Position numbers and translations under genes: made by a program
Origin: an uncultured Gemmatimonadaceae bacterium
GTDB lineage: Bacteria; Gemmatimonadota; Gemmatimonadetes; Gemmatimonadales; Gemmatimonadaceae
Direction of reading: 5' to 3'
Length of the DNA stretch: 64,000 nucleotides
Assembly (NCBI GenBank): GCA_963790305.1
Contig: CAWBOC010000007.1
Coordinates: 64,001 to 128,000, forward strand
Shown here: one piece after another, positions 4,874 to 61,925 of the stretch
How the letters are laid out: each line of letters opens with the position of its first letter
How positions within the stretch are numbered: the first letter of the stretch is position 1
The notes under the pieces: model-generated
Told to the model about the DNA's origin: nothing
The model's database searches: none
Seen by the model: the letters and a program-made list of their open reading frames with translations, nothing else

Positions 4874-6685
4874 CTATTGAACTCTCATCCTCCTCACCTG
4901 GATCTCGTGACTCAACCTCGTCGCCGCGATCCAGCGGCCATCGGGGGACACCTGGGGGTGAAGAAGGTGGGCCGTGCTGCTCGACAGGCGCCGCGGTACT
5001 CCACCGGCGGCCGGAATGGCGAAGAGCTGCATGCGATTCCCGCTCAACGCGCTGTAGATCAGCATCTTTCCGTCAGGCGTCCAGTCGACACCGCCATAGG
5101 TACGCATCGGGTAGTCGACGAGCTTGCGCGCCGCCGTTCCGTCGGATCGGATGACCCACAGGGCGTGACGCCCGCCCGGCATCGCTTCCTCGATCGCGAT
5201 CTCCTCGCCGGCCGGGGACCACGCCGCCATCTCGGCGCCAGTCAGGGCCGGCGGTAGAGGTAGTCGAATGCTCGACGTCGCACGTCCCGCCGCGGTGTCG
5301 AGGGCAATCACGAATGGGAACGAGTGCCGAGTCCCCAGCGAGCGGTCGAACGACGTGAAGACGAGCCGAGTGCCGTCGGGCGCCCAGTCGGGCGAGCCGG
5401 CCTCGAGACCGAAATCGGTGAGCCGAACCTCGGCCGTGGATGGCGCGCCCGCCGCTCGGAGGTAGATGTCGTCCGTCGCGCCGGAATCCGAGTAGGATGC
5501 GACCGGCCGGCTCGAGCGATGCGAGTGATACGCGAACCAGCGCCCGTTAGGCGACCATACCGGAGGAAAGTCCTCGTGGTATCCGACAATGAGCGGGCCG
5601 GGCGGTGATGTCGCCAGAATGGCGCTGTCGACCTGCACCGCGCCTCCGTCCCAGTTCAGTGCCCAGTCGGCCGCGCGCCAGTCACCGTAGAAGTATCCGA
5701 TCTGGCGGCCATTGGGATGCCACGTCGGTGCCTGTGCGTCCTCGATCACCGAGTGCGGCTCACCTCCATTGATCGGGACGGAGACTACCGAGAAGGTGAC
5801 CCGCGTCGACGTCCAGTGGAGGTGGCCGCCCACGAGCAGCGGGTTCGCGTCATCCCCGGTCGTGGACGCGATCACCCTGCGAGCGCCGGTCGCGAGATCC
5901 AGCTCGTAGATGTCGAGATCGCGGTCGGCCCGCGGGTCGTGGCGCTCCTCGGGCATGGGCGTCCGCTCGCTGGCGAGCGCGACGTAGGCGCGGCGGCCAT
6001 CGGCGGCGACGGCGATACTGGTGCCAGCGGGTTCGGCGTCCAGCTCGCTCGCGATGAGACGCATTTCCCCGGTTCGCGCATTCATGCGGTGAAGCGAGGC
6101 TAGCCCGGCGCTGTCCGGCATCATCACGAGCAATGCCGAGGCGTCGGGATACCATGCGAACGCCCGGGCCCTCGCCGTCATCGGAACCACCCTCCGACCG
6201 GAGCGCGCAACGAGGTGCAGCATCCATTGCGAGCCCAGCGCCTCCTGGTACGCCACCGACTCGCCGTCCTCCGACCACTGCGGAACGGCGGCTGCCGCGA
6301 CATCGATGCTGCGCAGGGTCCCGGAACGATCGCGCTCGTACCAGCCGGCGGCATCACCGCGCCGGCCGCGCACCGCGATCTCCCCCGAGGGACGAATGAC
6401 GACACCGGTGACTTCGTCGACGCCCGCCCACGCCTCCATCGGCAGGGCCCCGTGCTGCACGTCGATGAGGGCCACCCCTCCCCTGCTCGCGAACACGAGA
6501 CGTCGTCCGTCAGGCGCGACAGACGTCGCGCGCGCGAAATACTCCTCGAACCAGGTGGTCGCGTCGTGCGAGTGAATGACCTGAGAGGTCGCGGGCGCGC
6601 TCGGAATGGGCGTTTGTACGCATCCAGCGACGGCGTACGTCACGACGACCACGCGCGTGAGCGCAGCAAGGCGGGCTTTATGCAC
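4874..6685 (-). CDS. TolB-like/PD40 beta-propeller exported (lipo)protein
   Basis: Repeated P-x-W-S-P-D-G units (PVWSPNGR, PDWAPDGT, PQVSPDGR); hydrophobic N-terminus ending VAGC; start approximate. Confidence 0.8.
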   Translation of the reverse strand: MHKARLAALTRVVVVTYAVAGCVQTPIPSAPATSQVIHSHDATTWFEEYFARATSVAPDGRRLVFASRGGVALIDVQHGALPMEAWAGVDEVTGVVIRPSGEIAVRGRRGDAAGWYERDRSGTLRSIDVAAAAVPQWSEDGESVAYQEALGSQWMLHLVARSGRRVVPMTARARAFAWYPDASALLVMMPDSAGLASLHRMNARTGEMRLIASELDAEPAGTSIAVAADGRRAYVALASERTPMPEERHDPRADRDLDIYELDLATGARRVIASTTGDDANPLLVGGHLHWTSTRVTFSVVSVPINGGEPHSVIEDAQAPTWHPNGRQIGYFYGDWRAADWALNWDGGAVQVDSAILATSPPGPLIVGYHEDFPPVWSPNGRWFAYHSHRSSRPVASYSDSGATDDIYLRAAGAPSTAEVRLTDFGLEAGSPDWAPDGTRLVFTSFDRSLGTRHSFPFVIALDTAAGRATSSIRLPLPPALTGAEMAAWSPAGEEIAIEEAMPGGRHALWVIRSDGTAARKLVDYPMRTYGGVDWTPDGKMLIYSALSGNRMQLFAIPAAGGVPRRLSSSTAHLLHPQVSPDGRWIAATRLSHEIQVRRMRVQ

Positions 6686-6770
6686 GACGCGAGTCTGCTC
6701 GCGTCCCCTCGCAGCGTCAAGAACGGCTCTGCCGCTTCCGGCGTTCATCATCGGCTCTAGATTACGAGAC

Positions 6771-9560
<2,790 letters not shown>

Positions 9561-10217: not shown

Positions 10218-10958
10218 TCATTTCCCGTTCTTTTTCAGCCTCGCCGCGATAAACCACGTCCGATACATCGCCGTCCCCAGGCTTCCGACGCCGATCACGG
10301 CCACGGCGAGACCCAGGATCGTTCCCGGTCGCCAGCCGGCGCGCGCGCTGAGTGGTGCATCCAGTAACGCCGCGAGCGCGAGGAGCACCAGGCGCTCGGC
10401 CCGCTGCATGATCCCGCCCTTGCAGCTGACGCCTAACGCCTCGCCTTTGGCGCGAGTGTAGCTCACCAGCATCGATCCGCCCAGCGCAAGCACGGTGGAC
10501 AGCGCCATCCAGGGCGTATGCGCAAGGCGGAGGGCCAGCCCAGTGTAAGCGAAGGTCTCGGCGAACCGATCGAGCGTCGAGTCGAGGAACTCGCCGTACT
10601 CGTTGGCGAGGCCGCGGGCGCGGGCGATGCGACCGTCGAAGATGTCCGCTGCCCCGCCGAGCAGCACCAGCCAGCCGGCGACCGCGAAATCACCGGTCGC
10701 GAACGCAATGCCGGCCCCCAGCCCGAGGGCGGCCCCGAGGAAATTGAAAAAGTCCGGAGAAAGGCCGGCCCGGACGAACCCGCGCTCCATGGGCCCGATC
10801 ACCCACATGAGCCAGTCGCGCACCCAATGGCCGAGCAGGATCGTCTTGGGCCGCCGAGCAACCTCCGGGTCGATGGGTCTGCCCCGCGACACGATTGCGT
10901 ACACGGGCATCGTGAGCAGGAGCAGTCCCACGAGCGAAAGCGAAATAGTCTGAGTCAT
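10218..10958 (-). CDS. CDP-alcohol phosphatidyltransferase family protein
   Basis: Signature D-x2-DG-x2-AR-x7-G-x3-D-x3-D (DIFDGRIARARGLANEYGEFLDSTLDR); SYTRAKGE; RAER. Confidence 0.93.
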   Translation of the reverse strand: MTQTISLSLVGLLLLTMPVYAIVSRGRPIDPEVARRPKTILLGHWVRDWLMWVIGPMERGFVRAGLSPDFFNFLGAALGLGAGIAFATGDFAVAGWLVLLGGAADIFDGRIARARGLANEYGEFLDSTLDRFAETFAYTGLALRLAHTPWMALSTVLALGGSMLVSYTRAKGEALGVSCKGGIMQRAERLVLLALAALLDAPLSARAGWRPGTILGLAVAVIGVGSLGTAMYRTWFIAARLKKNGK

Positions 10959-15987: not shown

Positions 15988-15989
15988 TC

Positions 15990-17207
15990 ATGAAAGCAAT
16001 CTCCTTTGCGGCGCCGATCCCGACCTATCTCGCGACGTTGCTGGCCGGGAAGGTCAACGATGCCCTCTACACCGGGCCGCACGCGTGCACACGACTCGGT
16101 GACGTCGAGACCCCCGCGCTGCCAACGGATCGATGGGTACGCGTGCGCACCCGGATGGGTGGGATCTGTGGGAGCGACCTCAACGTCATCACGCTCAAGG
16201 CCTCGCCGTCGACGTCGCCATTCTCCTCATTTCCGTTCGTGATCGGTCATGAGAACGTCGGCGAGATCGTCGAAGTCGGGCGCGGCGTTCGTGATGCTCG
16301 CGTCGGAGAGCGGGTCGTCGCCAATCCCCTGCTCTGCTGCGAGCCCCGCGGGCTCGAGCCCGCCTGCGACGCATGCGCGGCTGGCCATCACTCGAGGTGC
16401 GCGCGTTTCACCGACGGCGCTCTTGCGCCGGGGATGCTGATCGGCACGACGCGCGGACTTGGCGGCAGCTGGGGGGAAATGTTCGTCGCGCACGAGACGC
16501 AGCTCGTTCGCGTCGGCGACGCAGTGACCGACGAGGAAGCCGTTCTCGTCGAGCCCTTTGCCTGCTCCGTGCATGCCGTTCGCTCGGCGATGCCTGTCTC
16601 GGGCGAGCGCGTGCTGGTGATCGGTGCGGGCTCGATCGGGCTGCTCACCGTCGCGGCATTGAAGGCCCTCGCGCCGGCGTGTCATGTGACGGTACTGGCC
16701 AGGCACGCCTTTCAAGCCGAGCACGCGACGCGCCTCGGCGCGAACGGTGTCGTCTTCGCGCGCGGCGAATACCTGGGCGCACTCGCCGAGGCGGGTCAGA
16801 CGCGCCTGTTGAAGCCGATCATTGGGAAGCCCGTCGGCGTGGGCGGCTTTCACAAAACGTTCATCTGCATTGGCGGGGCACGAGCGACGGACGACGCGAT
16901 GCGCGTCACGCGCGCTGGAGGGACCCTCGTGCTGTTAGGCAACTCCGCGAAGATGGACGGCATTGACTGGACGCCCCTCTGGCTCAAGGAGCTGACCGTG
17001 CGCGGCTCGTTGTGCTACGGGGAGCACCGGCACGGGTCGCCCACCCGGGATGCGTTTCGCGAAGCCGCCGACCTCATCGCCGCGCGTCGCGTAGCGCTCG
17101 CGCCTCTCCTCACGCATGTGTATTCGCTCGCGGACTATCGGAACGCGCTTTCGACGGCGATGGACAAGAAGGGGTCGGGAAGCATCAAGGTGGCGTTCAG
17201 GTTCTAG
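15990..17207 (+). CDS. Zinc-binding medium-chain dehydrogenase/reductase
   Basis: GICGSD, GHENVG, structural-Zn cysteines (CC...CDAC...C), GAGSIG. Confidence 0.92.
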   Translation: MKAISFAAPIPTYLATLLAGKVNDALYTGPHACTRLGDVETPALPTDRWVRVRTRMGGICGSDLNVITLKASPSTSPFSSFPFVIGHENVGEIVEVGRGVRDARVGERVVANPLLCCEPRGLEPACDACAAGHHSRCARFTDGALAPGMLIGTTRGLGGSWGEMFVAHETQLVRVGDAVTDEEAVLVEPFACSVHAVRSAMPVSGERVLVIGAGSIGLLTVAALKALAPACHVTVLARHAFQAEHATRLGANGVVFARGEYLGALAEAGQTRLLKPIIGKPVGVGGFHKTFICIGGARATDDAMRVTRAGGTLVLLGNSAKMDGIDWTPLWLKELTVRGSLCYGEHRHGSPTRDAFREAADLIAARRVALAPLLTHVYSLADYRNALSTAMDKKGSGSIKVAFRF

Positions 17208-17808
17208 GACCCTCAGGGCTCTCAGCGTCCGCAGTGTCAGCGCCCTTGGACATGTAGGTCCCAGTCGCGTTCTCGATCTGAGACGTGAGCTGACGCTCGA
17301 TACCCTCGGCGTCGAGCGGCTTCATCATGTCGGCGAGCTCGGGATCCTCGGCCAGCTTGTGCCCCAGTCGCTGATACAGGCCGGCGACGAGCTGAAGGGT
17401 CTTGGTGACCTCCTCCTCGGCACGCATCAGCACCTGGAGGGTGATCTCCTCGCGCAGCTCGGCGACACTCGACTCCCGACGCTGCGCCATCAGCACGAAG
17501 ATCGCGAGGAAAATCGCCTCGAGTGACACGATCATGGTGAGGAGCCCAAACGGAAACGGATCGATCGGGGTGAGACCGGGGATGTACCCCGTATTCCAGA
17601 GAATCCACGTCATGAACCAGAGGGCGTGGACGGCGAGGAAATAGCCGGAGCTCGCGATCCGCGTTAGGCGGTCGGCGGCGGTCTCGAGCGGGCTGCGTCG
17701 GGCGGCGTGCCGCGCCTTGACGGCGCGCACCGCCCGATTGGTGACCGCCGAGCGCTGTCGGCGCTCCGGAGACGGCTGGCGGGACGGGGAGGAGCGTCGG
17801 TCAGGCAT
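17197..17808 (-). CDS. DUF1003 membrane protein
   Basis: ADRLTRIASS, WILWN, DPFPFGLLTMIVSLEAIFLAIFVLMAQ. Confidence 0.88.
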   Translation of the reverse strand: MPDRRSSPSRQPSPERRQRSAVTNRAVRAVKARHAARRSPLETAADRLTRIASSGYFLAVHALWFMTWILWNTGYIPGLTPIDPFPFGLLTMIVSLEAIFLAIFVLMAQRRESSVAELREEITLQVLMRAEEEVTKTLQLVAGLYQRLGHKLAEDPELADMMKPLDAEGIERQLTSQIENATGTYMSKGADTADAESPEGPRT

Positions 17809-21761: not shown

Positions 21762-22865
21762 TTGCCCCTGCCATTGTCTACCAGATCTCAGAGAACGTGG
21801 CCCGCCGAGTGGGAACCCCACGCCGCGACGTGGCTCGGTTGGCCCCACCACGCGCCCGATTGGCCCGGCAAGTTCGAGCCGATCCGCTGGGTCTACGCCG
21901 AGATCGTGCGCGCACTTCACGGCTACGAGCCCGTCGAGATTCTCTGCCACTCGAGGAGATTCAGGAGCAGGCGCGGCGCCGCGCTGCGCTCCCACGGCGT
22001 TAGGCTCGACCGGTGCCGGCTGCATGTCGTTCCCAGCGATCGGGTTTGGCTTCGCGACTCGGGGCCGACCATGGTCTGGCGCGAGGACGGGAGCGTCGAA
22101 GCCGTGTGCTGGCGCTTCAACGCCTGGGCCAAGTACGACAACTACCGTGCGGACGCGCTGGTCGCGCCGGCGGTGGCGCGCCTCGCGCGAATTCCCGCCG
22201 CCGAAGCCGTTCGTCCCGACGACGGAAGCCGTCTCGTGCTCGAAGGCGGAGCGCATCGACACGAACGGCGCGGGCGTGCTGCTCGACGACGGAGGAGTGT
22301 CTCCTCTCGACGGTTCAGGAGCGTAACCCCGGACTCGATCGCGCTGGATACGAGCGCGCCTTCCGCGACTACCTGGGCATCCGACACGCACGATCTGGCT
22401 CGGCGAAGGGTGCGTCGGTGACGACACGCACGGGCACGTGGACGACATCGCGCGCTTCGTCGCGCCGAACACCGTCGTCCTCGCCTTCGAGGCCGATCCC
22501 GCCGACGCGAACCACGAGCGCTCCGTCGACAACCGCCGGCGACTCGAGCACGCCGCGCGACAGGTCGAGGGCGGCCTGCAGATCGTCGATCTTCCGTATC
22601 CCGCGTGCCGTCATCATGGACGGCGAGCGACTGCCGGCGAGCTACGCCAACTTCTACATCGCGAACGGCGTCGTGCTCGTCCCGACGTTCAACGACGTGA
22701 ACGATCGCATCGCGCTCGGCATTCTCGCCGAGCTGCTTTCCCGATCGCGACGTGATCGGGATCCACGCCGTGGATCTCGTATGGGGACTCGGCACCCTGC
22801 ACTGCCTGACCCAGCAGCAGCCGGCCGCTCAGGGCCCCTTTCAGCGAATCCCCGGCACCCCCTGA
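21762..22865 (+). CDS. aguA: Agmatine/peptidyl-arginine deiminase; split by several single-base insertions
   Basis: [61 protein letters not shown]. Confidence 0.88.
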
Positions 22866-34888: not shown

Positions 34889-36157
34889 TTACCGCCTCCC
34901 GCTCCGCATCACCCTCCAGATTCGCCCGCCACGATCGTCGCTGATGTAGAGCGATCCGTCGGGCCCCACCGCGATTCCCACCGGACGGTGGCGAGCCCCC
35001 GCGGGCTGCACCGAGTCACCGGCGAACCCTGTCGCGAAGATCTCGTGCGGCCCCGCACGGCCCTTCTCGAAGGGAACGAACACGACGTTGTAGCCGCCCT
35101 GCGCGCGAGGGGCGCGGTTCCACGACCCGTGGAAGGCGATGAATGCGCCGCCCCGGTAGCGCGCCGGAAACTGCGTCCCATCGTAGAACGCGAGCCCGTT
35201 AGGCGCCCAGTGCGCCGGCATCGCCGCGACCGGTCCCTTCACGCTCGCGCAGCGCCCGACCTGCTGACCGTCGCCGCCGTACTCGGGCGCCAGGACTTTC
35301 CGCTTCGCCTGCCCGTCGTAGAAGCAGTACGGCCACCCGAAATCATCCCCGCGTCCCACGCGAAAGAGCTCCTCCGCGGGAAGCTCCGCGCTCTCGGTCG
35401 TGTCGAAATGCGCGGGCCAGTTCTGCACCAGATTGTCGCGGCCATGCTGCGCCACCCAGAGTGCACCATCGGACGGATGGATCGTGATCGCGACGGCGTT
35501 CCGGATACCGGTCGCCCAGCGCTCGCCATTGCCCTGGGTCTGCCCCTTGTTCGCTGCCTCGAAGCGCCAGATGCCCGCGCGCGTTTCAAGCTCCGGACAG
35601 GGCGCCTGCCCGGGGGATTGTGGCTGACGGTCCTGGAGCTGACAGGCGTTCGACGGCGAGCCGATGTTCACAAAGAGATCGTTGCCGCGTAACGCGATGG
35701 TCTTCGCGGTGTGACTCCGCCCGGTGGGAAGCGAACCCACCACCGTGTCCGGTGCACCCGTCGGGCGAAGCGCCCCGGGAGAAATCGTGTAGCGCAGCAC
35801 CGCCTCGTCGGTCGCGAAGAAGAGATCGGTGCCTCGGAGCGCGATGCCCGAGCCGCCGTTGTCGCCGAATCGCTCGCGCACGTCCATGCGGCCATCACCG
35901 TTCGTGTCTCGCAACGCAATGGTTGCGCCCTTCACATCGCGCGTGTTCCGGATCGCCACGAACAGATCGCCATTCGGCGCAACGACGATGTGGCGCGCGG
36001 GGCCGAGGCTGTCCGCCACGACGAGCGCGCAGAATCCCTGCGGCAGTGTGATGCCGCCGTTGGTGGTATCGCACGCGACGCGCGACCGCTGCGCTGCAGC
36101 CGATGTGGTGATCGCGGCGGTACATGTGACGGCCGCGATGATGACGGATCGAATCAT
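34889..36157 (-). CDS. PQQ-dependent sugar/sorbosone dehydrogenase family protein
   Basis: Signal peptide; [55 protein letters not shown]. Confidence 0.9.
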
Positions 36158-40752: not shown

Positions 40753-43362
40753 TTATTCGCCAATGAGCACGGCTACCGGAAGCGTGAGAAACACCTCACG
40801 CGCCAGCAGCGTGGCACCGCCTTCAGCATTTTGTGTTTCCACGGCGCGCCCGGTGAGCGCGCACCGCCAGCGACGGGGGACATCGCTTCGAGGAAACATG
40901 ATCTCGGAGTCTCCCCACGCCAAGCCCGTCGGAATGCCTACGGTTCCAGACAATCGGACAGGCAGGCGCGTCACGGCGACGACGACCGTGGCTCCCTCGA
41001 AGGAGCGAGTGAAGGCGATGGCGTGGGCCGCGCGTTCGCCGCGGATGTCCAGGGAGACGTATCTGCCTCGCGTGAAGACCGGAGTCATCTCACGACGAAG
41101 ATGGAGCGCGGTACGCGTCACGTGCATCTTGAGCCGGCTGTCGGCGACGGTGCGCAGCATCTCCGCGCATGCCGCCGCGACATCGCCGCCGTCGAGCGTG
41201 GCGTCGAGTCGATCGAGCGTGGCGCGACGTGCCTCGAAGTCTACCTCGCGACGGTTGTCCGGATCGACCAGCGCGAAGTTCCACATTTCATCCCCCTGGT
41301 AGATGTCGGGGGTGCCCGGCGCCGTGAGGTGCACCAACAGTCGCGACAGGGCGTTACAGTATCCGGCAGGTGCCACGCGGCTCGCGAAGGTGGCCAACTC
41401 CGTCGCGAAGGTTTCGTTCTGCAGTGCGGCGCCGATATACGCCCGCACGGCGTTCTCATAGGCTTCGTCCGGTGACGTCCAGCTGGTGCGGACTTTCGCC
41501 TCACGATTCGCCTTGACCATGTATTCGACGATGCGGTCCTTCACTGCGCCCGCGGCCGCCGGGGGGGCTTCCTCCGCGGGCCATATGCCGAGCATCGTCT
41601 GGTAGATGAGCCACTCCGTCGAGGCGTCCGGGGCTGCGCCGCCGCGACCTTTCGCTCGATGGGACGCCAGCAGACGTCGCCAGCGGCGCACCGAGCGCAG
41701 CCACTCGTCCGGCATCTCACTCAGGACGTCGATCCGCGAGCGGACATCGGCGCTCCGCTTCGTATCGTGCGTCGACGTGCAGAGGAGGGAGCGCGGCCAT
41801 CGATTCTGGCGCTCGCGGTTCGCACGGTGCAGGTCGGCGACGGCGCGGGGCAGATCACGCGCGGGATCGCCGCCGACTTCGTTGAGCGACGCCAGCGGCA
41901 CATAACGATAGAGCGCGGTGTCCTCGACGCCTTTTGCCGTCGCCGGCCCGCTTGTCTGCTGGAGCCTCCCGATGAACTCGCTTGCGTGCTCATCCGGGGA
42001 TTCGAGCACCGCCGCGAGGCGATTGAGCTCGTGACTGCCTTTCCACCGCTCCCGAACGCGCGCGAGGGCGCGCTCGATGACCTCGCGATCATCACCGTGA
42101 ACGGTGCCCCGTCCGTCAATGTAGGTTCGATACACCGGCAGCGTCGCAATGAAACGACGAATGGCCGCCGCGGCCCCGGCCGCCGCCGCTCCCCGTCGCA
42201 TTCGCCGCGCACGACGGAACAGCTTCGTCAGGCGAGACACATCCGCGGCGAGCGCGGCGCGCAGCACGAGCTCCTTCCCGCGAACGGCCGCCTCTTCGAT
42301 TCCCCCACGGCCGCGAGCGCCGACCAGGCGCCGATAGCCGTCGTCGAGACGCGACGCGCCCTCGGCCGCGATGAATGCAGCCTCCAGCTCATTGAGGAAC
42401 TCGTAGCCCGTCGTTCCCTGCACGGGCCAGCTCTCGCGCAGCCGCTCTCCGGGGGAGAGAATCTTTTCGACGACGATCGGGACCGGATCGGCCGTGGATG
42501 GACGACGTCCCGCCACCTCGACACGCAGCGCGTCGAGGTAGGCCTGCGGATCGAGAAGCCCATCGATATGGTCGATGCGCAGTCCATCGATTACGTCATC
42601 CTCGACCCACTGAAGCACGAGCGCATGCGTCTCGCGGAACACCTCCGGGTCGTGCATGCGAAGCGCGATGAGGTCGTTGACGTCGAAGAACCGGCGATAG
42701 TTGATCGCGATCAATGCACGCTTCCAGAACGCGAGCCGGTACCACTGCGCGTCCACGAGCTCGCGCATCCGTGCCCGACCCTGCTTTCCTTCGTGCCACC
42801 GGGACAGGTCCGCACGCCCAAGCTCGCTCTCGGTTTCGCGCGCTACCGGAAAGGTTTTGTCGAAGTACTTGAGACGAATGCGGGCACCCTGTCGCTGGAG
42901 TGAGAGCTCGCCGCGATCCAGCACTGCTTCGAGGGTGTCGCCGAGAACGGGAACGAGAACGCGGCCCTGCAGAGATGATCGCTCCGACTCCCACTCGACA
43001 TCGAACCAGCTCGCCCACCGGGAGCGCCGACCGTTGGCCAGCATGTCCTCCCAGTAGGGATTGTCGGCACCGGTACCCATGTGGTTAGGCACGATATCGA
43101 GCAGGATTCCCATCCCCCGACCGCGAAGCTCGGACGCGAGGCCGCGCAGCTCATCCTCCGACCCGAGCTCCGGGTTGAGGCGTGTCGGGTCGGCGACATC
43201 GTATCCGTGGAGACTTCCAGGCCGGGCCGCGAGCAGCGGAGACGCGTAGATGTGCGACACGCCGAGACGCTCGAGATACGGCACCAGCCCGCGCGCATCC
43301 TGGAGCCGAAAGCCCGCGTTGAACTGGAGGCGGTAGGTCGCCGTCAGCGCGAGGGAACCCAT
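40753..43362 (-). CDS. treY: Malto-oligosyltrehalose synthase
   Basis: ATYRLQF, DIVPNHMG, NYRRFFDVN, GLRIDHIDGL, AKGVEDTA, STHDTKRS, LVDPDNRR. Confidence 0.95.
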   Translation of the reverse strand: MGSLALTATYRLQFNAGFRLQDARGLVPYLERLGVSHIYASPLLAARPGSLHGYDVADPTRLNPELGSEDELRGLASELRGRGMGILLDIVPNHMGTGADNPYWEDMLANGRRSRWASWFDVEWESERSSLQGRVLVPVLGDTLEAVLDRGELSLQRQGARIRLKYFDKTFPVARETESELGRADLSRWHEGKQGRARMRELVDAQWYRLAFWKRALIAINYRRFFDVNDLIALRMHDPEVFRETHALVLQWVEDDVIDGLRIDHIDGLLDPQAYLDALRVEVAGRRPSTADPVPIVVEKILSPGERLRESWPVQGTTGYEFLNELEAAFIAAEGASRLDDGYRRLVGARGRGGIEEAAVRGKELVLRAALAADVSRLTKLFRRARRMRRGAAAAGAAAAIRRFIATLPVYRTYIDGRGTVHGDDREVIERALARVRERWKGSHELNRLAAVLESPDEHASEFIGRLQQTSGPATAKGVEDTALYRYVPLASLNEVGGDPARDLPRAVADLHRANRERQNRWPRSLLCTSTHDTKRSADVRSRIDVLSEMPDEWLRSVRRWRRLLASHRAKGRGGAAPDASTEWLIYQTMLGIWPAEEAPPAAAGAVKDRIVEYMVKANREAKVRTSWTSPDEAYENAVRAYIGAALQNETFATELATFASRVAPAGYCNALSRLLVHLTAPGTPDIYQGDEMWNFALVDPDNRREVDFEARRATLDRLDATLDGGDVAAACAEMLRTVADSRLKMHVTRTALHLRREMTPVFTRGRYVSLDIRGERAAHAIAFTRSFEGATVVVAVTRLPVRLSGTVGIPTGLAWGDSEIMFPRSDVPRRWRCALTGRAVETQNAEGGATLLAREVFLTLPVAVLIGE

Positions 43363-45510
43363 TGTCGCTCCACGCCCAGCGCGCGACGGACCTCGGCGCT
43401 CTCGCTCATTTCCTCGAGACTCATCGTCATTCGTCGCGTCCAGCTGGGCCACTGAGCGGCCGCTACGCCGGGAAGGTTTACCGGCTCGACTTCCCCAGTG
43501 AGGTCGTCGAGCGAAAGTCCCACCAGCCAGGACGGCGTGCGCCGCAGGAACGTGTGAACCGCTTCACGCAGCGCCAGGTCGGTGGTCGGCTCCTCGTTCG
43601 CCGGCCAAAGGCCCTCCTCAATGAGCGTCGTCGCGAGCGCCTCGCGCGCCTGGGCCCGCTCCTGTCGCGCCCCTGCCACCGCACGCTGCGTGGGAATCGC
43701 TCCCACCTTCGCGCGCAGATCAATGTCGCTCTCCCGCCAGAATGCCGCGATCGTCGGCATGTCGTGCGTATTGGCTGTCGTCAGCGCGAGCGCGGGATAC
43801 GCGCGAGGGGGCTTGAACCGCCCACCCTTCGGCTCCGATTCGAAGTACATCACTTTCGAAGAGAGGACGCCCCACCGCTCGAGTGCCGGGGGAACCTCTG
43901 GTGGCACGGTGCCGAGATCCTCACCCACGATGAGAGCGTTGGCACGCACGCTCTCGAGCGCCGCGATGCCTAACAGGTCGTCGCCGGGAAAGCGCACGTA
44001 GGCGCCATCGCGGCCCTCCATGCGCGCGTGGAATCCAGAACTGCCGAAAGAGTCCGAGGACGTGGTCGATGCGCAGCGCGCCGGCGTGTCGAAGCGCCGC
44101 CCGCACCAGGCGCACCCAGTACGCGTACCCATCCTCGGCCAGCCGATGCGGGTTGATCGCCGGAAGCCCCCAATTCTGCCCCGCGGCCGCATAAGGGTCG
44201 GGCGGAGCGCCGATCGTCGGGCCATCGAGAAAGAGTCCCGGATGCATCCACGTGTCGCTGCCGTCTCGCGCTGCCCCAATCGCCAGGTCCTGATACAGAC
44301 CGACGGGCAGCGACAGCTCGCGCGCGCGCGCCTGCGCGTCGCCGAGCTGGCGGTCGAGCTCGAACTGTGACCACTGATGAAAGCGGACGCGCTCGCGCTC
44401 TTTCTCACGAAACGCCTTCACCGCGCGTCCGCGCGGATCTCGCAGCTCATTCGGCCACTCCTGCCAGGGCATACCCTGCTGCCGCTCGTCGAGCGCGCAC
44501 CAGGTGGCAAAGTCCTCGAGCTGCTCCCCCTGTGATTGGACGTACCGCGCGAACGCCCGACCACGTTCCGTCTTCTTTCCTTCGTGGTTCTCCATGAATG
44601 AGCGATGGAGGGCCTCGAGGACCGGGCGCTTCATCCTCATCACCGCCTCGTAGTCCACGTGCGATGCATCGCGCAGCTCGGCGATGCGCGGGAGGGCGCG
44701 AGCCGTCAGCGTTCGCGCATCCGCGCTGTCCGCCATCTCGGGCACCGCATCGACGTCAATGTAGAGAACATTCCCGAAGAGCCGGCTCACCGGGCCGTAG
44801 GGTGAGATGTCGTGACCCCGGTTGCGCAGCGCGTGCAGCGGATTCACGCCGACGAAAGCGGCGCCAACGTCGGCGGCCCACTCGGTGAGCCGAGTGAGAT
44901 CGCCAGTGTCGCCAACACCCCAGTTCCGCGCGCTCCGCAACGTGTACACGTTGGCGGTGAGACCCACGACGCGCCGTCCGCCAAGCAGGTCTTCGGGCGC
45001 GGCGCATTTGCGAGGCACGACGATCAGCCGCTGTGTCCCCTCCACCGACTGACCACGCGCACGTGCCGTTAGGCGCACGGTGTGGTAGCCAGGGCCGGGT
45101 GCCGCATCCAGCGGGATGTGGATCTGCCCGCGCGCGCTTTTGGTCGTGCGGCCCGCGCGCCGGACGGTTCTCCCCTGCTCATCTTCGAGCTCCACCTCCC
45201 ACTCGACGCGCGACGGCCAGCCGCGTGGAAGAGTAATCGCAATCGGCGCGGAGGCATCGGCGGTAACGCGAACCGGAGGCAGCAATTGCTCGTGCGCACG
45301 CTCGCGAAGCGCGACCAGCGCGTCGGCGGCAGCAGCGTCATCGGACACGTCGTAGCCCATGGAGCTGAGCAGCGCGGCGCGTGTACGATCGCTCGTGGCC
45401 CGCCGCTCCTTCCCAGTCTGGTCGACGTACTCGGCAATGATCCCCACCCGGTCGGCGAGCGCGCGCAACGCGCTGGCCCTGCGTCTTCCGGAGTGCTTAC
45501 GAGGTGCCAT
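43344..45510 (-). CDS. malQ: 4-alpha-glucanotransferase (GH77); one insertion near 44024
   Basis: WGVGD, GVNPLH, SPY, YQDLAIG, GAPPD, GQNWG, RIDHVLGL, GEDLG, THD, NLPG. Confidence 0.92.
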
Positions 45511-47835
45511 TCCCACCATCGGCGGCGCGCGCGACCGCGGAGTCCTCCAGTGCGAGCACGAGCGCGCCCAGCGGTGGGACCTGCAGGGCTACCGACTGCG
45601 GGTAGCCATGAAACGGTGTCTCCTCAACGGCAATCGTTGGACGCATGCCGAGCCCGCTGCCCCCGTATCGGCTGTCGTCGGTCGACATCACGCAGGGTGT
45701 AGCGCCCCGTGCTCGGCACGCCGATCCGGTACTGCTCGCGCGGAATGGGAAGGAAGTTGAGGACGACAATGACGTGCTCGTGCCCATCGTGGCGCGCATA
45801 TGAGATCACGGAGTTCTCCTCATCCGCCAGATCGATCCACGCAAACCCGGATGGGACGTGATCATTCCGCCACAGCGCGGATCGCTCACGGTACAGGCGT
45901 CCAAGGTCCTCGACGAATCGCGAGAAGCCTGCACGTTGTGGCTCACCCGCGAGGTGCCAGTCGAGGCTCGTGTCGTGATTCCATTCGGCCCAGGGCGCGA
46001 ACTCGGTGCCCATGAACAGCAGCTTCTTGCCGGGCCGCGTGTACTGGTAGGTGAGCAGCAGGCGAAGGTTCGCGAGCTTCTGCCACAGGTCGCCCGGCAT
46101 CTTCTCGAGCAAGCGAGCGCTTGAGGTGCACGACTTCATCGTGCGACAGCGGCATGATGAACCGCTCGTTGTATTCGTACACCATGGCGAAGGTGAGCTC
46201 GCCCTGGTGGAACCTTCGATACAGTGGATCACGCGCGAAGTAGCGCAGCGTGTCGTGCATCCACCCCATGTTCCATTTGAAGGTGAACCCCAGCCCGCCT
46301 TCGGACACGGGCTTCGTGACACCCGGCCAGGCGGTGGATTCCTCGGCAATGGTGATGCATCCCGGGTCCTCGGTGCGCACCGTCTCGTTGAGCTGCCGCA
46401 GGAAATCGATCGCCTCGAGGTTCTCGCGGCCGCCGTATCGGTTGCGTAGCCATTCTCCCGGTCTGCGCGAGTAGTCGAGGTACAGCATGGAGGCGACCGC
46501 GTCCACACGCAGCCCATCGACGTGGAACTCCTCGAGCCAGAAGAGCGCATTCGCGATGAGGAAGTTGCGCACCTCCGGCCGGCCGTAGTTGAAGATCAGC
46601 GTCCCCCAGTCCGGGTGCTCGCCGAGGCGCGGGTCTTCGTGCTCGTAGAGCGCGGTGCCGTCGAATCGCCGAAGCGCGAAATCGTCCTTGGGAAAGTGCG
46701 CCGGCACCCAGTCCAGCAGCACACCGATCCCCGCGCGGTGGCACGCGTCGACGAGATAGCGAAAATCGTCGGGGGTGCCATAGCGGGACGTCGGGGCGAA
46801 GTATCCGGACACCTGGTATCCCCACGAGCCGGTGAATGGATGCTCCGACACGGGAAGCAGCTCGATGTGGGTGAAGCCAAGGCGCCGCACGTGCTCGACC
46901 AGCCGCGGGGCGATCTCGCGGTACGTGAGCGGACGGTTGTTCTCTTCCGGTACGCGCGCCCAGGAGCCGAGATGGACCTCGTAGATGAGCATCGGCTCGC
47001 GGGGTGGATCACGGTGCGGGCGCTCGACCATCCACTCCCGATCTTCCCATGCATACCTCTGCTCGTCGACGACGATCGACGACGTTCCGGGCATCTGCTC
47101 CATCTTGAAGGCGAAGGGATCCGTCTTCAGCCGTGGAACGCCAGCGTGCGTGATGATCTCGTACTTGTAGAGCGCCCCGGCGCCGATCTCGGGGACGAAC
47201 AGCTCCCAGACGCCGGACGATCCCATCGTACGCATGGGATACACGCGCCCATCCCATCCGCAAAAGTCGCCCACGACGCTCACCCGGCGGGCGTTAGGCG
47301 CCCAGACGGCGAAAGCGACGCCGCTGACGTTATCAATCGTGCGGACGTGCGCGCCGAGCTTCTCCCACAGACGACGATGCGTCCCCTCGGCGAAGAGATG
47401 CGCGTCGATCTCACCGATGGTCGGCAGGAAGCGATAGGGATCATCTCGCTCCCAGGCGACGCCCCCGGAATGGTGGAAGCGAAGCCGGTATCGCAGCGGG
47501 GCGCTCGCGTTCGGCAGAAACACCGAGAACAGCGGGCCGGCCTCGCGCTCCATCGGAACCGCCTCGCGACCTTCCGGAAGCACGTCGATCGCGCTGGCAT
47601 CCGGGTGCATCGCGCGAACCACGACGCCGTTGACGCCCTGCACGGTCGTGGGGTGCGCTCCGAGAATCGAATGCGGATTGGTGTGATTTCCCGCAAGAAG
47701 ATGTCGCACGGATTCCTGGTTAGCCGCTGGTGGCGAAAAGCGCTTCGGGGCGCTCCTCGTTGGAGGTTCGGCGGTGGCGGCTGGAGCCGCCTCCATCGCG
47801 CGACGCTCCTCGCCCTCTCCCCGCTTAGCGTCCAT
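45497..47835 (-). CDS. glgB: 1,4-alpha-glucan branching enzyme; insertions near 46112 and 45692
   Basis: [57 protein letters not shown]. Confidence 0.93.
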
Positions 47836-50012
47836 AGTCCAGCACCTCGGGAGCCGCGGCGACGATGTCGTCACCGGATCGTGCCTCGACCACCAGGCGA
47901 CGATCGGGCCCGTATCGCAAGAGCATGAGCGAATGCGGCATGAGGCCGACCCAGCCCGCGTCGATCATCCGCAAGGACCCGGAGGCCGTGTCAACGAGCT
48001 GCGCCCATTGGCCCTCGTGACCGACCGCCGGCAGCGTGAATCGAACGTCGTCATCGCCCGCATTCGTGAGAAGCAGCATGGTGTCATCGCGAATGCGACG
48101 TCCCCGCTCATCGGTGTCGTCGGTGGCGTCGCCATTGACCAGAGCGCCGAGTGCCTTGTTGTGCGCGTTCTGCCAGTCCTGTTCCGTCATTTCTTGACCG
48201 TCGGGACGAATCCAAATCAGATCCTTGGGGGCCCCCTCGGTCACCGGAGCGCCGCGAAAGAAATGCCGGCGGCGGAAGACCGGGTGGGCGTGACGGATCG
48301 CCAACGCGGTTTTCGTGAACTCGAGGAGCGCCTTGCGTCGATCGTCGAGCTCCCAGTTCACCCACGAAATCTCGTTGTCCTGCGCATACGCGTTGTTGTT
48401 GCCACCCTGCGTCCGCGCGATCTCATCGCCGTGCGACAACATCGGAACGCCTTGCGAGAACGCGAGCGTCGCCAGGAAGTCGCGCATCAGCCGGAAGCGC
48501 AGGTCGAGGATGCGCTCGTCCGCGGTCTCGCCTTCCACCCCCCAATTACGACTCAGGTTGTCGTTATGCCCATCCTGGTTGTTCTCGCCATTCGCCTCGT
48601 TGTGCTTCTGCTCGTAGCTGACGAGATCGTACAGGGTGTAGCCGTCGTGCGCGGTGACGAAATTCACGCTCGCGTACACTGCGCGACCGGTTCCCTGATA
48701 GATGTCCGCCGACCCGGCCAATCGCGACGCCAGCTCGGGTGTGGTGCCATGCTCACCTCGCCAGTATTTCCGGATCGCGTCGCGGTACTTCCCGTTCCAC
48801 TCGGCCCACCGAACCGGGAAGTTGCCCACCTGGTACCCCCCGGGCCCGATGTCCCATGGCTCGGCAATGAGTTTCACCGTCGACAAGACGGGGTCCTGCT
48901 GGATGATGTCGAAGAAGGTCCCGAGCTTGTTCACCTCCAGAAGCTCCCGCGCGAGGACGGGCGCCAGGTCGAATCGGAAGCCGTCGACGTGCATCTCCTT
49001 CGACCCAGTACCGCAGGCTGTCCATGATGAGCTGGATCGTGCGCGGATGCAGCATGTTGAGACTGTTGCCCGTGCCCGTGAAGTCCACGTAGTGTCGCGG
49101 GTTCTTCGGATCCAGGCGATAGTAGGCGCGGTTGTCGATGCCGCGCAATGAGAGCGTGGGGCCGAGATGGTTTCCTTCCCCCGTGTGGTTGTACACGACG
49201 TCGAGGATGACCTCGATGCCCGCCGAATGCAGCGTCTTCACCATCGACTTGAACTCGTACACCTGGTTGCCGAGTCCCTTCGTCGCATAGCGGACGTCCG
49301 GGGCGAAGAAGCCGATCGAGTTGTACCCCCAGTAGTTCGTCAGGCCTTTCTCGGCGAGCCCACGGTCGACGACGAACTGGTGGACCGGCAGCAGCTCGAT
49401 CGCGGTAATGCCTAACGCGAGAAAGTAATCGATCATCGCATCGGAGCAGAGGCCGAGATAGGTACCGCGAAGGGGCTCGGGCACGTCCGGGTGCCGCACC
49501 GTCATCCCCTTCACGTGGCACTCGTAGATCACGGTGCGGTTCCACGGGATGCGGGGCCGCCGATCGGATCCCCACGTAAAGGCGCTATCGATGACGACGC
49601 ACTTCGGCACGCCGCCGGCGCTGTTCTCGGTGGACATCTCGAGATCCTGTTTCTCGCCGCCGACCTTGTACGCGAACAGCGCGTTGCTCCACTGAATTCG
49701 CCCCGTGATCGCCTTCGCGTACGGGTCGATCAGGAGGGTGTGCTGATTGAAGCGATCCCCCTCCTCCGGCCGATAGGGGCCATGCACGCGATAGCCGTAA
49801 TACTGACCGGGGCGAACGTCAGGCAGGTACGCGTGCCACACGTGATCGGTGAGCTCGGGCAGCACGATCTTGTGCGATTCCTTCGCATCCTCCGGGTTGT
49901 CGAACAAATGCAGCTCGACGCCCGTCGCGTGCTCGGAGAACAGGGCGAAGTTCACGCCTTCGCCATCCCACGTCGCGCCGAGTGGATACGGTTGTCCCGG
50001 CCACACCCTCAT
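47825..50012 (-). CDS. glgX: Glycogen debranching enzyme; one insertion near 48999
   Basis: [54 protein letters not shown]. Confidence 0.94.
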
Positions 50013-57154: not shown

Positions 57155-57216
57155 ATCGCGGGAACATGCACACACTGTTCTGCGGGCGGGAGAGCGGCGC
57201 GCCGGGCCTCGCCGGG

Positions 57217-57580: not shown

Positions 57581-57582
57581 GC

Positions 57583-58393: not shown

Positions 58394-61037
58394 TTGAGTA
58401 CTGAGGCTGTCCTGGATCGGCTGCGCGCCTCGCTTGCGGGGCGCTACGAGGTACAACGCGAGCTGGGTCGCGGTGGCTTCGCGACCGTGTATCTGGCCGT
58501 CGACGTGCGCCATGGGCGCATGGTCGCGATCAAGGTGCTGCATCCCGAGCTGATGGGCACGCTCCAGTCGGAGCGATTCCTTCGCGAGATTCGCGTCGTC
58601 GCGCACCTCAACCATCCGCACATCCTGCCGATGCTGGATTCAGGCGAGGCGGATGGGCTGCTCTTCTTCGCGATGCCGTACGTCGAGGGAGAAACGCTGC
58701 GCGACTGTCTCGGCCGGGAGAAGCAGCTTTCCATTGGCGAGGCGCTCCGCATCACGGCCGAGATCGCCGACGGGCTTTCCTACGCACACTCGCGTGGTCT
58801 CGTCCACCGGGACATCAAGCCCGAGAACATCCTGCTTTCCAGCGGCCACGCCGTCGTGACCGATTTTGGTATCGGGCGCGCAATCGATCAGTCGGCCGGC
58901 GAACGTCTCACCTACACCGGCATGGCGACCGGGTCGCCGGCGTACATGAGTCCCGAGCAATGGACCTCGGACGATCGAGTCGATGGCCGCAGCGATGAGT
59001 ACAGCCTCGCGTGCATGCTGTACGAGATGCTCGTGGGCGAGCCCCCCTTCTCCGGCGCCTCGCCGAACGCGCTCATGGCCAGGCACAACATGTCGCCGGT
59101 GCCTTCGGTCCGAACCGTTCGCCCGAACGTGCCCGAGGCGGTCGATGAGGCGATCGCGCGCGCGATGGAGAAGATCCCCGCCGACCGCTACCCGACGGTC
59201 ACCGTGTTCGCCGAAGCGCTTGCCGCCGCGCCGGCACCGGTGCGTGCCACGGCCGAGGACCCCATTGCCGTTCTGTCGGACCGGCGGGCGTCGCGCAAGA
59301 GATTCCGCTTCACGCGAACGCAGTTAGGCATCGCCGCGGCGATCGTCCTCGTTGCGGTGCTCGGCTACTTCGCCTATCAACAGTTCGGAGCAGACACGAG
59401 CTACACGCGCCTCGTCGTCATTCCCTTCAGGAATCTGGGCGACGGTGACGACGCGTATCTCGTCGACGGCATCACCGGCGAGCTGACCAACAAGCTCTCT
59501 GGAATCGGAAGCCTCGGCGTCATCGCCCGCACCAGCGCGGTGCAATATCGAAACAGCGGCAAGACCGCGCGTGAGATCGGGCGCGAGCTCCAGGTACAGT
59601 ATCTGATCGAAGGCGACGTTCGGCGTGAGCTCCCGAACGGGCACGAAGGAACCATTCACGTCAACGCGCGACTGGTTCGCACTCGCGACCAGACGCAGAT
59701 CTGGACCCAGGACTACGATGTCGAAGCAGCCGACGTCACTGACGTCCAGTCCCAGATCGCTCAGCGGGTCGCGGACGAGCTTGACCTCGTGCTGCTCGGA
59801 CCAGAGCGCCAACGGCTGGCTCGTCGCGCGACTGACGACGCACAAGCGTACGACTCCTACCTGCGCGGCAACGCGTACTACGAGCGCAGCTGGTCGAGGC
59901 CGGATGTCGAAGCGGCGGTCGAGATGTATCAGAAGGCAGTCGAAATCGATCCGGACTATGCGCTCGCCTACGCGAAACTGGCGCAGGCGCATGCCTGGAT
60001 GCACCAGCTGCGCTACGACCTGAGCGAGGACCGGCTCGTCGCCGCCAAACGTGCCGCGGATCGCGCGGTCGCGCTCGATCGTGACGCCCCCGAGGTCCAC
60101 GTCGCGCTCGGGCTGTACTACTACTGGGGGCGTACCGATTACGCGCGCGCGGTCGAGGAATTCACGATCGCCAAGGACCTGCAGCCCAGCAACGCGCTCG
60201 CGTTCCGCCAGATCGGCAACGTGCAGCGTCGTCAGGGGCGCTTCGCCGAAGCAATCGAGAGCTATCGCAGGGCCGCCGATCTCGACCCGAGATCCCACCA
60301 GGCGTGGTTCAATCTCGGCGAAACGCATCTCGTTCATGCGCAATTACGAGGAGACGGCTCGATATCTCGAGCGGGTAACGGCGCTGGCCCCCGAGTTCCT
60401 CGAGGGCTATGTGCAGCGTGCCCGTCTCTCAATAAGCGCGCGCGGCGATCTCGACGGTGCCCAGCGTATTCTGAGGCAGGCGGAGGAACGGATCGCGCCC
60501 ACGGCGTGGCGCGCCCCGATGCTCGACTTTGCCCGCATCATCTATCATCCGCAGCTCGATGAGTTTCTCGCGCGCATGCGACCCGGGGCGTACGGGCTCG
60601 ACAGCGCGTCGTATCACGTCATGAAGGGCACGATGTACCTTCAGCTCCAGCGAGCACCGCAAGCGACCGCGCAATTCGACTCCGGCCGCACTCACCTGGA
60701 AATCATGCGGAAGGATCAGCCCGACCAGGCCTGGATTCATGGATTGCTCGGCATCGCGTACGCCGGGCTCAAACGCGGGGACGAGGCCATCAGGTCCGCC
60801 GAGAGAGCCGAGCAGCTGCTTCCGGTCTCGAAGGACGCCCTGGATGGACCGGAATGGGTGATCAACCTGGGTCTGATTCACGCGATGCTCGGCAACGAAG
60901 CGAAGGCGATCGAGTATTACGGGAAAGCCTTATCGATCCCCTCATGGGTCTCGAGCAACTCGCTGCGTCGCGATCCGGTCCTTGCGACGCTCAACCGCAA
61001 CCCCGACTTCCAGCGACTGCTCGCGTCCCGCCCGTGA
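58394..61037 (+). CDS. Hanks-type Ser/Thr protein kinase with TM segment, TolB-N-like domain and TPRs; one insertion near 60332
   Basis: LGRGGFATVY, VAIK, HRDIKPEN, DFG, YMSPEQ; LVVIPFRN..DGITGELTNKLS; TPR helices continuing in ORF 60051-61037. Confidence 0.92.
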
Positions 61038-61040
61038 CGG

Positions 61041-61925
61041 TCAGGCTCGCGCGCCTTGCGACGGGGGGCGCAGCCGGGAGCCGCGACAGCAGCCACGCCC
61101 CAGTGCCGCGAGCATCCTCGCAATGAAGTTCACCGCGGCGGGCCGCGGCCGGGTGTAGGCAACGTAGTCCGCCCACGCAAACAGCTCGAGCCCCGATCGA
61201 GCGACGCCGCCGATCTTGCGCCGTTGCAGCGCGGCACGGCGCGCACGCCATGTGTTACGAGCGCCGATCGCCCGCTTGCGTGCATCATGACTCTGTGAAT
61301 CGGGAAGGTCGCGATAGTAATACAGCACCGCGTCGACAAAAACCGGGCGCGTGATCTCCTCCAGCTTGTAGACGAGGTCGCGATCCTCGGCGTAGAGCAT
61401 CGTCGCATCCAGACCAGCGGTCCGGGCGTATGCACCGCGACGAAAGCTGCGAATCGCTCCGACGACGCCTTCGAGAATCGCAGTTCCGCCGTCGGGGATG
61501 GCGCTGCCGTGGACCGCGCCTTGTCGTACGAGGGTCTCGTCATACACCGCATACCGCGAGTAGACGAACTCGACCGATTCGTCCGTTCCGTAGGCGGCCA
61601 GCAAACGCTCGGTCGCGTCGTCGGAGATCGCGTCATCGGCATCGAGGATCGCGACAATGTCCGTGGACGCTTCGGCGATGAGCCGCTTCAATGTGGCGAT
61701 GTAGCCCACGTTGCGCGGGTTGACGACGAGCCTGATGCGCTCATCGACGAAAGGCGCGATCGCGCTCAGCGAGTCGTCCGTGCTGGCATCGTCAGCGATG
61801 ATCGCGAGCCAGTTCGGGCTCGTCTGCCGGCGGATCGACTCCAGACAGGCAGCAACGAACGGACCGCGGTTGTGGTTCGCGATCAGATACGTGATGCGCT
61901 CGGCCGCTCCGCGCGCGTTAGGCAC
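61041..61925 (-). CDS. Glycosyltransferase family 2
   Basis: IANHN, DDASTD, LDADD, AEDRD. Confidence 0.9.
   Translation of the reverse strand: MPNARGAAERITYLIANHNRGPFVAACLESIRRQTSPNWLAIIADDASTDDSLSAIAPFVDERIRLVVNPRNVGYIATLKRLIAEASTDIVAILDADDAISDDATERLLAAYGTDESVEFVYSRYAVYDETLVRQGAVHGSAIPDGGTAILEGVVGAIRSFRRGAYARTAGLDATMLYAEDRDLVYKLEEITRPVFVDAVLYYYRDLPDSQSHDARKRAIGARNTWRARRAALQRRKIGGVARSGLELFAWADYVAYTRPRPAAVNFIARMLAALGRGCCRGSRLRPPSQGARA

Follow-up and report, generated by a model that had tools for sequence, protein, structure and literature searches.

Why should one short DNA word be written repeatedly into unrelated, ordinary genes? The question is raised by a stretch of 64 kb (the window) from an uncultured Gemmatimonadaceae bacterium, corresponding to positions 64001-128000 of contig C7 in an assembly of 4.31 Mb, 13 contigs, and 66% GC (G000:C7:64001-128000). 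The aconitase of this genome, G000, shares no more than 77% amino-acid identity with the nearest named records, which are metagenome-assembled genomes of Gemmatimonadaceae. An earlier note on this DNA had listed 17 copies of the heptamer GTTAGGC or its complement GCCTAAC within coding sequences. In the present study, the word was examined in the window, the whole genome, relatives of the same genus, the family, and the phylum. The word is a DNA-level signal written into ordinary genes, and its full form is the octamer CGTTAGGC. We tentatively propose that CGTTAGGC may be a “self word” resembling the DNA uptake sequences (DUS) of Neisseriaceae and the uptake signal sequences (USS) of Pasteurellaceae, spread by biased DNA transfer between relatives.

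All 17 copies in the window were confirmed (11 on the + strand and 6 on the - strand), and each lies within a gene in our own gene calls (Table 1). Dinucleotide shuffling of the window gave a mean of 2.46 heptamers and a maximum of 6, and none of 100 shuffles reached 17, an excess of approximately 7-fold. The two- to three-fold excess given in the earlier note was an underestimate in the genome as well: G000 carries 1105 heptamers, against 152 expected from an order-1 and 96 from an order-3 Markov model, and GTTAGGC is the top heptamer under both. The base before the heptamer is C in 77% of the G000 copies, G follows it in 45% and A in 27%, and no other information was found within 12 bases of the word. 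Because of this C at position -1 and the uninformative flanks, we regard the octamer CGTTAGGC as the true unit. It occurs 855 times in G000 against 44 expected (order-3 Markov), an excess of approximately 20-fold, and at 11 of the 17 window copies. Since no information lies outside positions -1 to +7, an origin of the word as part of a longer repeat was ruled out. One-base variants of the word are rare in G000 unless they are GC-richer words, and the density of the word is 0.16-0.34 per kb on every contig.

The coding statistics are based on a home-made, imperfect gene caller, which gave 3908 genes covering 88.7% of G000. Synonymous codons were shuffled within each gene in two ways, one plain and the other with the codon-boundary context kept (40 replicates each), and the word ranked first among all 7- and 8-mers of the coding DNA under both. 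GTTAGGC was observed 550 times in the sense direction, against 35 in the plain and 69 in the context-keeping shuffle, and GCCTAAC (the antisense direction) 362 times, against 63 and 71. The corresponding values for CGTTAGGC were 405 against 14 and 35 in the sense direction and 304 against 33 or 45 in the antisense direction. Of the 1324 TTA codons in G000, 476 (36%) are within G-TTA-GGC. The pair TTA-GGC follows a codon ending in G 476 times and a codon with any other ending only 8 times. All four stop-free frames are used within genes (xxG-TTA-GGC, 473; GTT-AGG-C, 71; xGC-CTA-ACx, 160; xxG-CCT-AAC, 200), whereas 2 and 1 copies, probably gene mis-calls, fall in the two frames that would create a stop. 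The word also supplies stop codons, with 46 genes ending in GT-TAG-GC and 40 in GCC-TAA-C. Coding and non-coding densities are similar, and the logo of the word is identical in 127 intergenic and 910 coding copies, with unconserved flanks in both. The earlier note had argued for selection or bias on DNA rather than on protein, and had proposed a codon-shuffled null and the context of TTA codons as checks. Its argument is borne out: the word tops every null that was run, with observed/expected ratios far from 1, and its occurrence is tied to the third base of the neighboring codon.

The word is unevenly distributed among relatives. We performed a first survey of 30 relatives of G000, a survey of 401 Gemmatimonadaceae genomes with a completeness of at least 80%, and a survey of 301 genomes of the phylum. 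In the family survey, genomes with at least 1.5 times the count of a reversed-word control were classed as word-rich (hand tally). The tallies include nine unpublished genomes in the family survey and four in the phylum survey, all of which are word-poor. In the first survey, all 8 genomes of the same genus were word-rich (382-1006 octamers), as were G012 (605), G016 (6360), and G030 of another family (345); the remaining 19 relatives had 3-65 copies, below the reversed-word control. In the family, 88 of the 401 genomes, from 24 of 68 genera, were word-rich, with up to 7821 copies; in some genera, the density is as high as approximately 1.3 copies per kb. Intermediate levels were found in genus g37, in parts of g20 and g60, and in a few single genomes. 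Genus g52 was split: 8 of its genomes were word-rich, with 1586-4141 copies, and 11 were word-poor, with 4-66 copies. Outside the family, 3 of 125 genomes of family f2, all of genus g102, and none of 105 genomes in the other ten families were word-rich. The word-rich g52 genomes form one clade in a quick tree of a core gene. Parsimony gave 8 changes; however, well-supported branches force only 2, which leaves it uncertain how many independent gains or losses occurred. No other “dialect” was seen in 160 kb of G010, the only word-poor genome sampled, in which the top word reached a z of approximately 10 against 20-46 in four word-rich samples (140-171 kb).

The word is maintained within the genus and renewed between genera. 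Approximately 300 kb of DNA from five same-genus genomes, 77-84% identical, was aligned to G000, and the expected conservation was taken from phase-matched control heptamers. The word was intact at 19 of 22 aligned sites in G005 (5.6 expected), 17 of 37 in G003 (6.5), 2 of 6 in G008 (1.8), 4 of 6 in G004 (1.8), and 3 of 5 in G001 (0.9). In total, 45 of 76 orthologous sites were conserved against approximately 17 expected. In one core gene with 36 orthologues, 20 word-rich genomes carried 39 copies and 16 word-poor genomes carried none. These copies are at 26 aligned positions, only 2 of which are common to different genera. The word-poor orthologues have synonymous codons there (for example, CTC-GGC) or other residues (Phe-Gly, Ile-Ala, and Leu-Val), and some copies of the word alter the amino acid. 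With so few positions shared across genera, each lineage keeps adding the word anew, sometimes at the cost of the protein. The logo, the conservation at orthologous sites, and the contrast between word-rich and depleted sister genera support the suggestion in the earlier note of a lineage-specific, genome-wide signal comparable to HIP1 (highly iterated palindrome 1) or DNA uptake sequences.

The word is indifferent to strand. It occurs 534 times on the + strand and 571 times on the - strand of G000, neighboring copies have a random relative orientation, and forward and reverse counts are approximately equal in word-rich genomes, with lopsided counts only in a few word-poor genomes with small numbers. 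GC skew is weak in G000, and word orientation tracks it faintly (Spearman 0.36, 100-kb bins). On the two arms around the likely terminus (C6, approximately 180 kb), the counts were 16+/15- and 26+/40-, no more than a mild sense-strand preference predicts. Replichore polarity, raised as a check in the earlier note, was thus absent from G000, with no orientation switch at the likely terminus, as read from an assembly of 13 contigs with weak skew. Regarding the terminus itself, gene orientation and cumulative GC skew converge at approximately 180-186 kb of C6, and an Xer-like recombinase gene is located at 209 kb.

Spacing is more even than chance, and at a shorter scale in a denser genome. Close pairs are depleted in G000, with 12 against 54.5 expected below 200 bp and 51 against 77 at 200-500 bp. 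A 156-kb sample of G016, with 1.46 heptamers per kb, had 27 spacings below 200 bp against 57 expected and 86 at 400-800 bp against 56 expected (coefficient of variation, 0.82). Density in G000 increases with the nativeness of the gene, from 0.128 per kb in the least typical tenth to 0.290 per kb in the top quartile, and peaks at the highest GC content of third codon positions despite the AT-rich nature of the word. Around the likely terminus (C6, 140-220 kb), 6 copies were found against approximately 20 expected, which is 3-4-fold sparse, in this single region.

These data require a force that acts on the identity of double-stranded sequence and is indifferent to strand, frame, and coding status. 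They also require that this force give diminishing returns for a nearby second copy, have long residence times, be active in many genera, and be switchable off. A DUS/USS-like model fits all of these properties, and the machinery is present in G000; it is therefore the explanation that we favor. We infer a bias in DNA transfer as the force and uptake, rather than packaging or conjugation, as the route. According to this model, DNA carrying the word would be transmitted better between related cells, because the transformation machinery would have a receptor, at the surface or in the periplasm, that prefers word-bearing fragments. Homologous recombination would write the imported fragments into the chromosome. 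Mutations that create the word would spread and those that destroy it would be replaced, a molecular drive that may act with or without selection.

The word shares several features with DUS and USS. In each case, a short, exact, non-palindromic word is present in hundreds to thousands of copies on both strands, resides in genes in several frames at some cost to the protein, is conserved between species, and is less dense in atypical DNA. Even spacing is shared, as is a transformation toolkit (ComEC, DprA, pilus, and secretin). The excess of the word, its use of all frames, its maintenance, and its independent accumulation in different lineages similarly favor uptake. However, the word in G000 is only 8 bp long, has no extended or AT-rich flanks, and forms no inverted-pair terminators.

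ComEC was present in all 31 genomes of the first survey and G000, whether word-rich or not. G000 also encodes DprA, four secretin matches, a weak ComEA-type match, and 13 pilin-like genes, four of which are of the GspH/FimT type. None of 12 pilin-like proteins of G000 matched the ComP_DUS family at E <= 0.01; the four GspH/FimT-type pilins were not individually tested. A GspH/FimT-like pilin initially seemed specific to the word-rich g52 genomes. However, it did not correlate with the word on a panel of 47 genomes: full-length homologues of this GspH-type pilin were present in word-poor G087, G271, G031, G045, G010, G018, G255, and G333, and none was found in word-rich g1, G055, G116, G123, G165, G041, and G176. 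We also considered the Ssn-related motifs (NTS/SRM), which, according to PMC11893778, are hairpin-forming repeats of approximately 30 bp that cluster around genes and occur with the GIY-YIG gene ssnA. This type of motif does not fit a word without conserved flanks or a hairpin; ssnA was not searched for.

Several points weigh against the uptake model. By sequence comparison, no receptor was found, and because the transformation toolkit is equally present in word-poor genomes, it does not discriminate between the two classes. No member of this group is known to be transformable. DUS in Neisseria typically form inverted-repeat terminator pairs; such pairs are absent here, and close pairs are depleted. 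DUS and USS are typically family-wide, whereas the present trait is patchier and splits genus g52. The 24 word-rich genera share one identical word, in contrast to Neisseriaceae, in which DUS reportedly exist as dialects. The model does not predict the sparse zone of approximately 80 kb at the likely terminus, it does not account for the patchiness within a genus, and, alone, it leaves the spelling of the word unexplained, namely why it is identical to the integron attC core, down to the C at -1.

A reader inside the cell that tracks DNA is an unlikely explanation. The word may be a Chi-like regulator of a helicase-nuclease other than the known Chi readers, a loading or stop site of a translocase, or a site for nucleoid organization or occlusion, and selection would preserve a minimum of one copy per few hundred to few thousand bases. 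Even spacing, on a scale that follows density, and conservation at orthologous sites are both consistent with this possibility. The Chi site of Escherichia coli is also an over-represented octamer and occurs approximately once per 5 kb, similar to the one copy per 4-5 kb in G000, and nucleoid-occlusion sites are sparse at the terminus, as is the word in the one region observed. Furthermore, G000 encodes an Eco57I/MmeI-type N6-adenine methyltransferase of 1021 aa followed by an SNF2/ResIII helicase of 739 aa (C7:233022-238367), and this family-wide pair is a conceivable component of such a system.

The absence of the expected machinery argues against an intracellular reader. RecC was found in none of the 31 genomes. 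The AddAB-type nuclease domain (PF12705) was detected in 9 of the 31, among which only G030, with weak matches, is word-rich; it was not found in G000, other members of its genus, G012, or G016. In g52, none of the 8 word-rich genomes had the domain, against 9 of the 10 word-poor ones, a contrast that represents a single evolutionary event on a proxy tree. Family-wide, it was present in 104 of 401 genomes, comprising 10 of 88 word-rich and 94 of 313 word-poor genomes (hand tally). AddAB is, thus, depleted among word-rich genomes but not excluded from them, and it cannot be the reader. A Chi site read by RecBCD or AddAB was ruled out by the lack of RecC and AddAB in G000 and by the absence of replication polarity. 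This absence also sets the word apart from the FtsK-orienting polar sequences (KOPS) and the SpoIIIE and TraB recognition sequences (SRS and TRS), as does the FtsK inventory. An FtsK-family match was found in 51 of 53 genomes (one each in 48, and two in G303 and G165) and was not found in G102 or G052; no extra FtsK/TraB-like paralogue tracks the word, and a translocase of this type was ruled out. Moreover, a housekeeping function with shifting specificity predicts a substitute word in word-poor genomes, and the 160 kb of G010 showed none. With respect to FtsK in G000, the translocase domain lies in two open frames (363 and 300 aa; C13:171208-171832), and the gene is therefore frameshifted or mis-assembled.

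The spelling of the word leads to integrons. According to PMC3053210 and PMC12901181, an attC site comprises an R'' box (RYYYAAC) and an R' box (GTTRRRY) with the crossover after the G. The word fits R' and its complement fits R''. By our post hoc estimate, a random top heptamer would fall within the 16-member attC consensus approximately 0.2% of the time. In word-poor G021, same-strand copies with a period of 500-600 bp proved to be an integron cassette array, the units of which terminate with an imperfect palindrome that lies between GCCTAAC and C-GTTAGGC. On contig G021:C95, C is at -1 in 23 of 26 R'-side copies, and four attC sites from G021 folded with z values of -5.5 to -8.7. Same-strand clusters in G019, G021, G023, and G029 had been considered as a polar signal or repetitive gene; the clusters of G021, the only one inspected, are integron arrays. 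A few one-stranded octamers 500-700 bp apart also occur in G447, G502, G446, and G591 (f2), in G019:C3, G021:C43/C80/C95, and G029:C1. This spacing is the signature of a cassette array, and large chromosomal integrons thus seem common in the order, as judged from G021:C95, the contig that was inspected.

Two ways of linking the word to integrons were considered. The first, which we regard as decidedly unlikely, retains uptake: the receptor would be tuned to integron attC cores, cells would preferentially import cassette-bearing DNA (“cassette fishing”), and molecular drive would copy the attC core thousands of times into the genes of the host as a by-product. If true, cassette fishing would tie natural transformation to integrons mechanistically, and CGTTAGGC would be the first uptake sequence outside Proteobacteria. 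The second, which is quite improbable, places the cause in integron biology itself, where the integrase or a relative would bind dispersed copies as R'-type landing pads (attG-like), or the word would be a by-product of attC-tuned uptake or recombination. It draws on the exact match with the arrays of the order and on the presence of an integron integrase above the curated cut-off in 22 of 31 genomes. In addition, PMC12901181 cites the insertion of cassettes by integrases at genomic attG sites, and PMC12614218 describes the recruitment of cassettes by chromosomal integrons from transformed single-stranded DNA, shown in Vibrio.

However, integrase presence does not track the word in the 31 genomes, and we ruled it out as the driver: an integrase exceeded the cut-off in word-poor G009-G011, G013, G014, and G018, was not found above it in word-rich G012 and G005, and was fragmented in G016. 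Word-poor G021 has large arrays and no genome-wide spread of the word. In G000, the integrase gene (C9:694984-695919, 449 bits, above the cut-off) is followed 3' by at least four repeated units that end in GTTAGGG rather than the word (698853, 699369, 703000, and 710801; region C9:694984-711400). Each unit has only a short CTAAC...GTTAG hairpin of approximately 35 nt, and attC sites are usually much longer. Dispersed copies of the word in G000 are solitary and lie in housekeeping genes, where landing pads would be harmful if the gene is essential. The only four -/+ pairs below 200 bp do not fold like attC sites (z of -0.8 to -1.4 for three and +0.3 for a 39-bp pair), and attC pairs or solitary cassettes, for which an R''-R' spacing of 57-141 bp is expected, were ruled out by the lack of partner boxes and folding. 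The identity of the two spellings nevertheless suggests a link between cassette capture and the process that spreads the word.

A mutational drive linked to methylation or repair, as has been proposed for HIP1, is very improbable. An enzyme would mark the word and a coupled repair process would convert near-matches, which is consistent with the rarity of one-off variants. The Eco57I/MmeI class reads non-palindromic words of 6-8 bp, and the G000 enzyme, the only DNA methyltransferase detected in this genome, has an intact NPPW motif. HIP1 itself is tied to two methylases (PMC13756078). The earlier note had mentioned a methyltransferase site as one possibility, and presence/absence data do not support it: the enzyme is a core gene, found in 46 of 47 panel genomes regardless of the word (44-63% identity; fragments only in a few), an unusual degree of conservation for a restriction-type gene. 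The NPPW motif is preserved in 36 of 37 sequences, the exception (G303) being a wrong choice of open reading frame. The best alignment column, located outside the recognition region, has A in 16 of 20 word-rich sequences and in none of the 17 word-poor ones; no column separates the classes cleanly. We accordingly rejected this methyltransferase as the reader. No PF01555 enzyme, C5 methyltransferase (PF00145), or Vsr was found in G000, and Vsr-type patch repair was rejected on this basis. Furthermore, the change from CTN-GGC to TTA-GGC, the most frequent form of the word, requires two substitutions, which we consider to be beyond a single-step repair bias, and even spacing is not predicted.

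Another transfer route, in which the word would direct packaging into a gene-transfer agent or phage-like particle or be recognized by a conjugative DNA pump, is highly improbable. Every drive signature of the uptake reading applies to it, the patchy, accessory-like pattern even within a genus fits, and the recurrence of the word in three families of the order suggests a transferable reader. However, the FtsK-family search revealed no additional FtsK/TraB-type pump in word-rich genomes, and known gene-transfer agents do not rely on a sequence signal for packaging.

Among known words, HIP1 (GCGATCGC, cyanobacteria) is also a hyper-abundant octamer in genes, with orthologous conservation, quasi-periodic spacing, and a lineage-restricted distribution with exceptions. 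However, HIP1 is a palindrome with two known methylases, whereas the Gemmatimonadaceae word is asymmetric and the sole methyltransferase detected does not track it. The function of HIP1 was long unknown; this iterated, quasi-periodic octamer is now argued to be related to uptake and transformation (PMC13756078). Among open-access papers and bioRxiv preprints, we found no description of this word for the phylum, nor of any other word of the uptake or iterated type. The family and phylum distribution, conservation within the genus against turnover across genera, density-scaled spacing, and negative reader tests are newly established here.

Few hyper-abundant words have an established role (DUS, USS, Chi, and KOPS, with the role of HIP1 debated), and each has given access to a mechanism by which DNA is transferred, repaired, or segregated. 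The present word is a case of equal strength from a soil phylum that is represented largely by uncultured genomes, and it overrides codon usage and sometimes protein sequence. Its on/off pattern across more than 400 relatives, including a split genus, is suited to phylogenetic profiling for the reader. As a simple marker, the word can also be used in genome binning and to detect foreign DNA in these genomes.

The copies in the window are read as TTA-GGC (seven), CCT-AAC (seven), CTA-ACG (two), and GTT-AGG (one), and are listed in Table 1.

Table 1. Copies of the word in the 64-kb window, with the strand of GTTAGGC and the reading in the host gene.
Positions	Strand	Form	Reading	Gene
5546..5552	+	octamer CGTTAGGC, from 5545	antisense CCT-AAC (Pro-Asn)	PD40/TolB-like (- strand)
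9236..9242	+	heptamer only	G-TTA-GGC (Leu-Gly)	aconitase
10431..10437	-	octamer	G-TTA-GGC	CDP-alcohol phosphatidyltransferase (- strand)
16934..16940	+	heptamer only	G-TTA-GGC	Zn-dependent alcohol dehydrogenase (MDR)
17663..17669	+	octamer	antisense CTA-ACG (Leu-Thr)	DUF1003
21999..22005	+	octamer	antisense CCT-AAC	279-aa gene without Pfam match
28612..28618	-	octamer	G-TTA-GGC	RecQ helicase
33984..33990	-	octamer	antisense CCT-AAC	248-aa gene without Pfam match
35198..35204	+	octamer	antisense CCT-AAC	glucose/sorbosone dehydrogenase (GSDH)
40282..40288	-	heptamer only	G-TTA-GGC	carbohydrate phosphorylase
43084..43090	+	heptamer only	antisense CCT-AAC	899-aa alpha-amylase-family gene
43968..43974	-	heptamer only	GTT-AGG-C (Val-Arg)	MalQ, near 3' end
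45068..45074	+	octamer	antisense CTA-ACG	MalQ
47293..47299	+	octamer	antisense CCT-AAC	GlgB branching enzyme
49410..49416	-	octamer	G-TTA-GGC	GlgX-like (CBM48 + amylase)
59323..59329	+	heptamer only	G-TTA-GGC	Ser/Thr kinase-TPR
61917..61923	+	octamer	antisense CCT-AAC	family-2 glycosyltransferase, 5' end

Pfam matches confirmed most of the gene names in the earlier note (aconitase, RecQ, phosphorylase, MalQ, GlgB, GlgX-like, kinase, Zn-dependent alcohol dehydrogenase, CDP-alcohol transferase, PD40/TolB-like, GSDH, and DUF1003). However, the GTT-AGG copy at 43968 is, in our gene calls, in the MalQ gene and not in “aguA”. The additional GTTAGG[T/G] variants that it gave (8591, 38160 on the reverse strand, 38869, and 58112) are all present, but those at 38160 and 38869 are outside called genes.

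A different kind of repetition was observed in an intergenic region of the window (57200-57600). In this element of approximately 400 bp, short tandem repeats (such as CAGAATTCAGAACG, three times, and units of the GCGGATG type) together form a large imperfect inverted repeat, and segments of the element have matches at many sites in genomes of the same genus. Related tandem arrays of 7 and 9 bp account for other over-represented words in G000: TCCGCAT arrays are behind TTCCGCATT (384 copies), and AGGCGCTAG arrays are behind GCTAGAGGC (179 copies).

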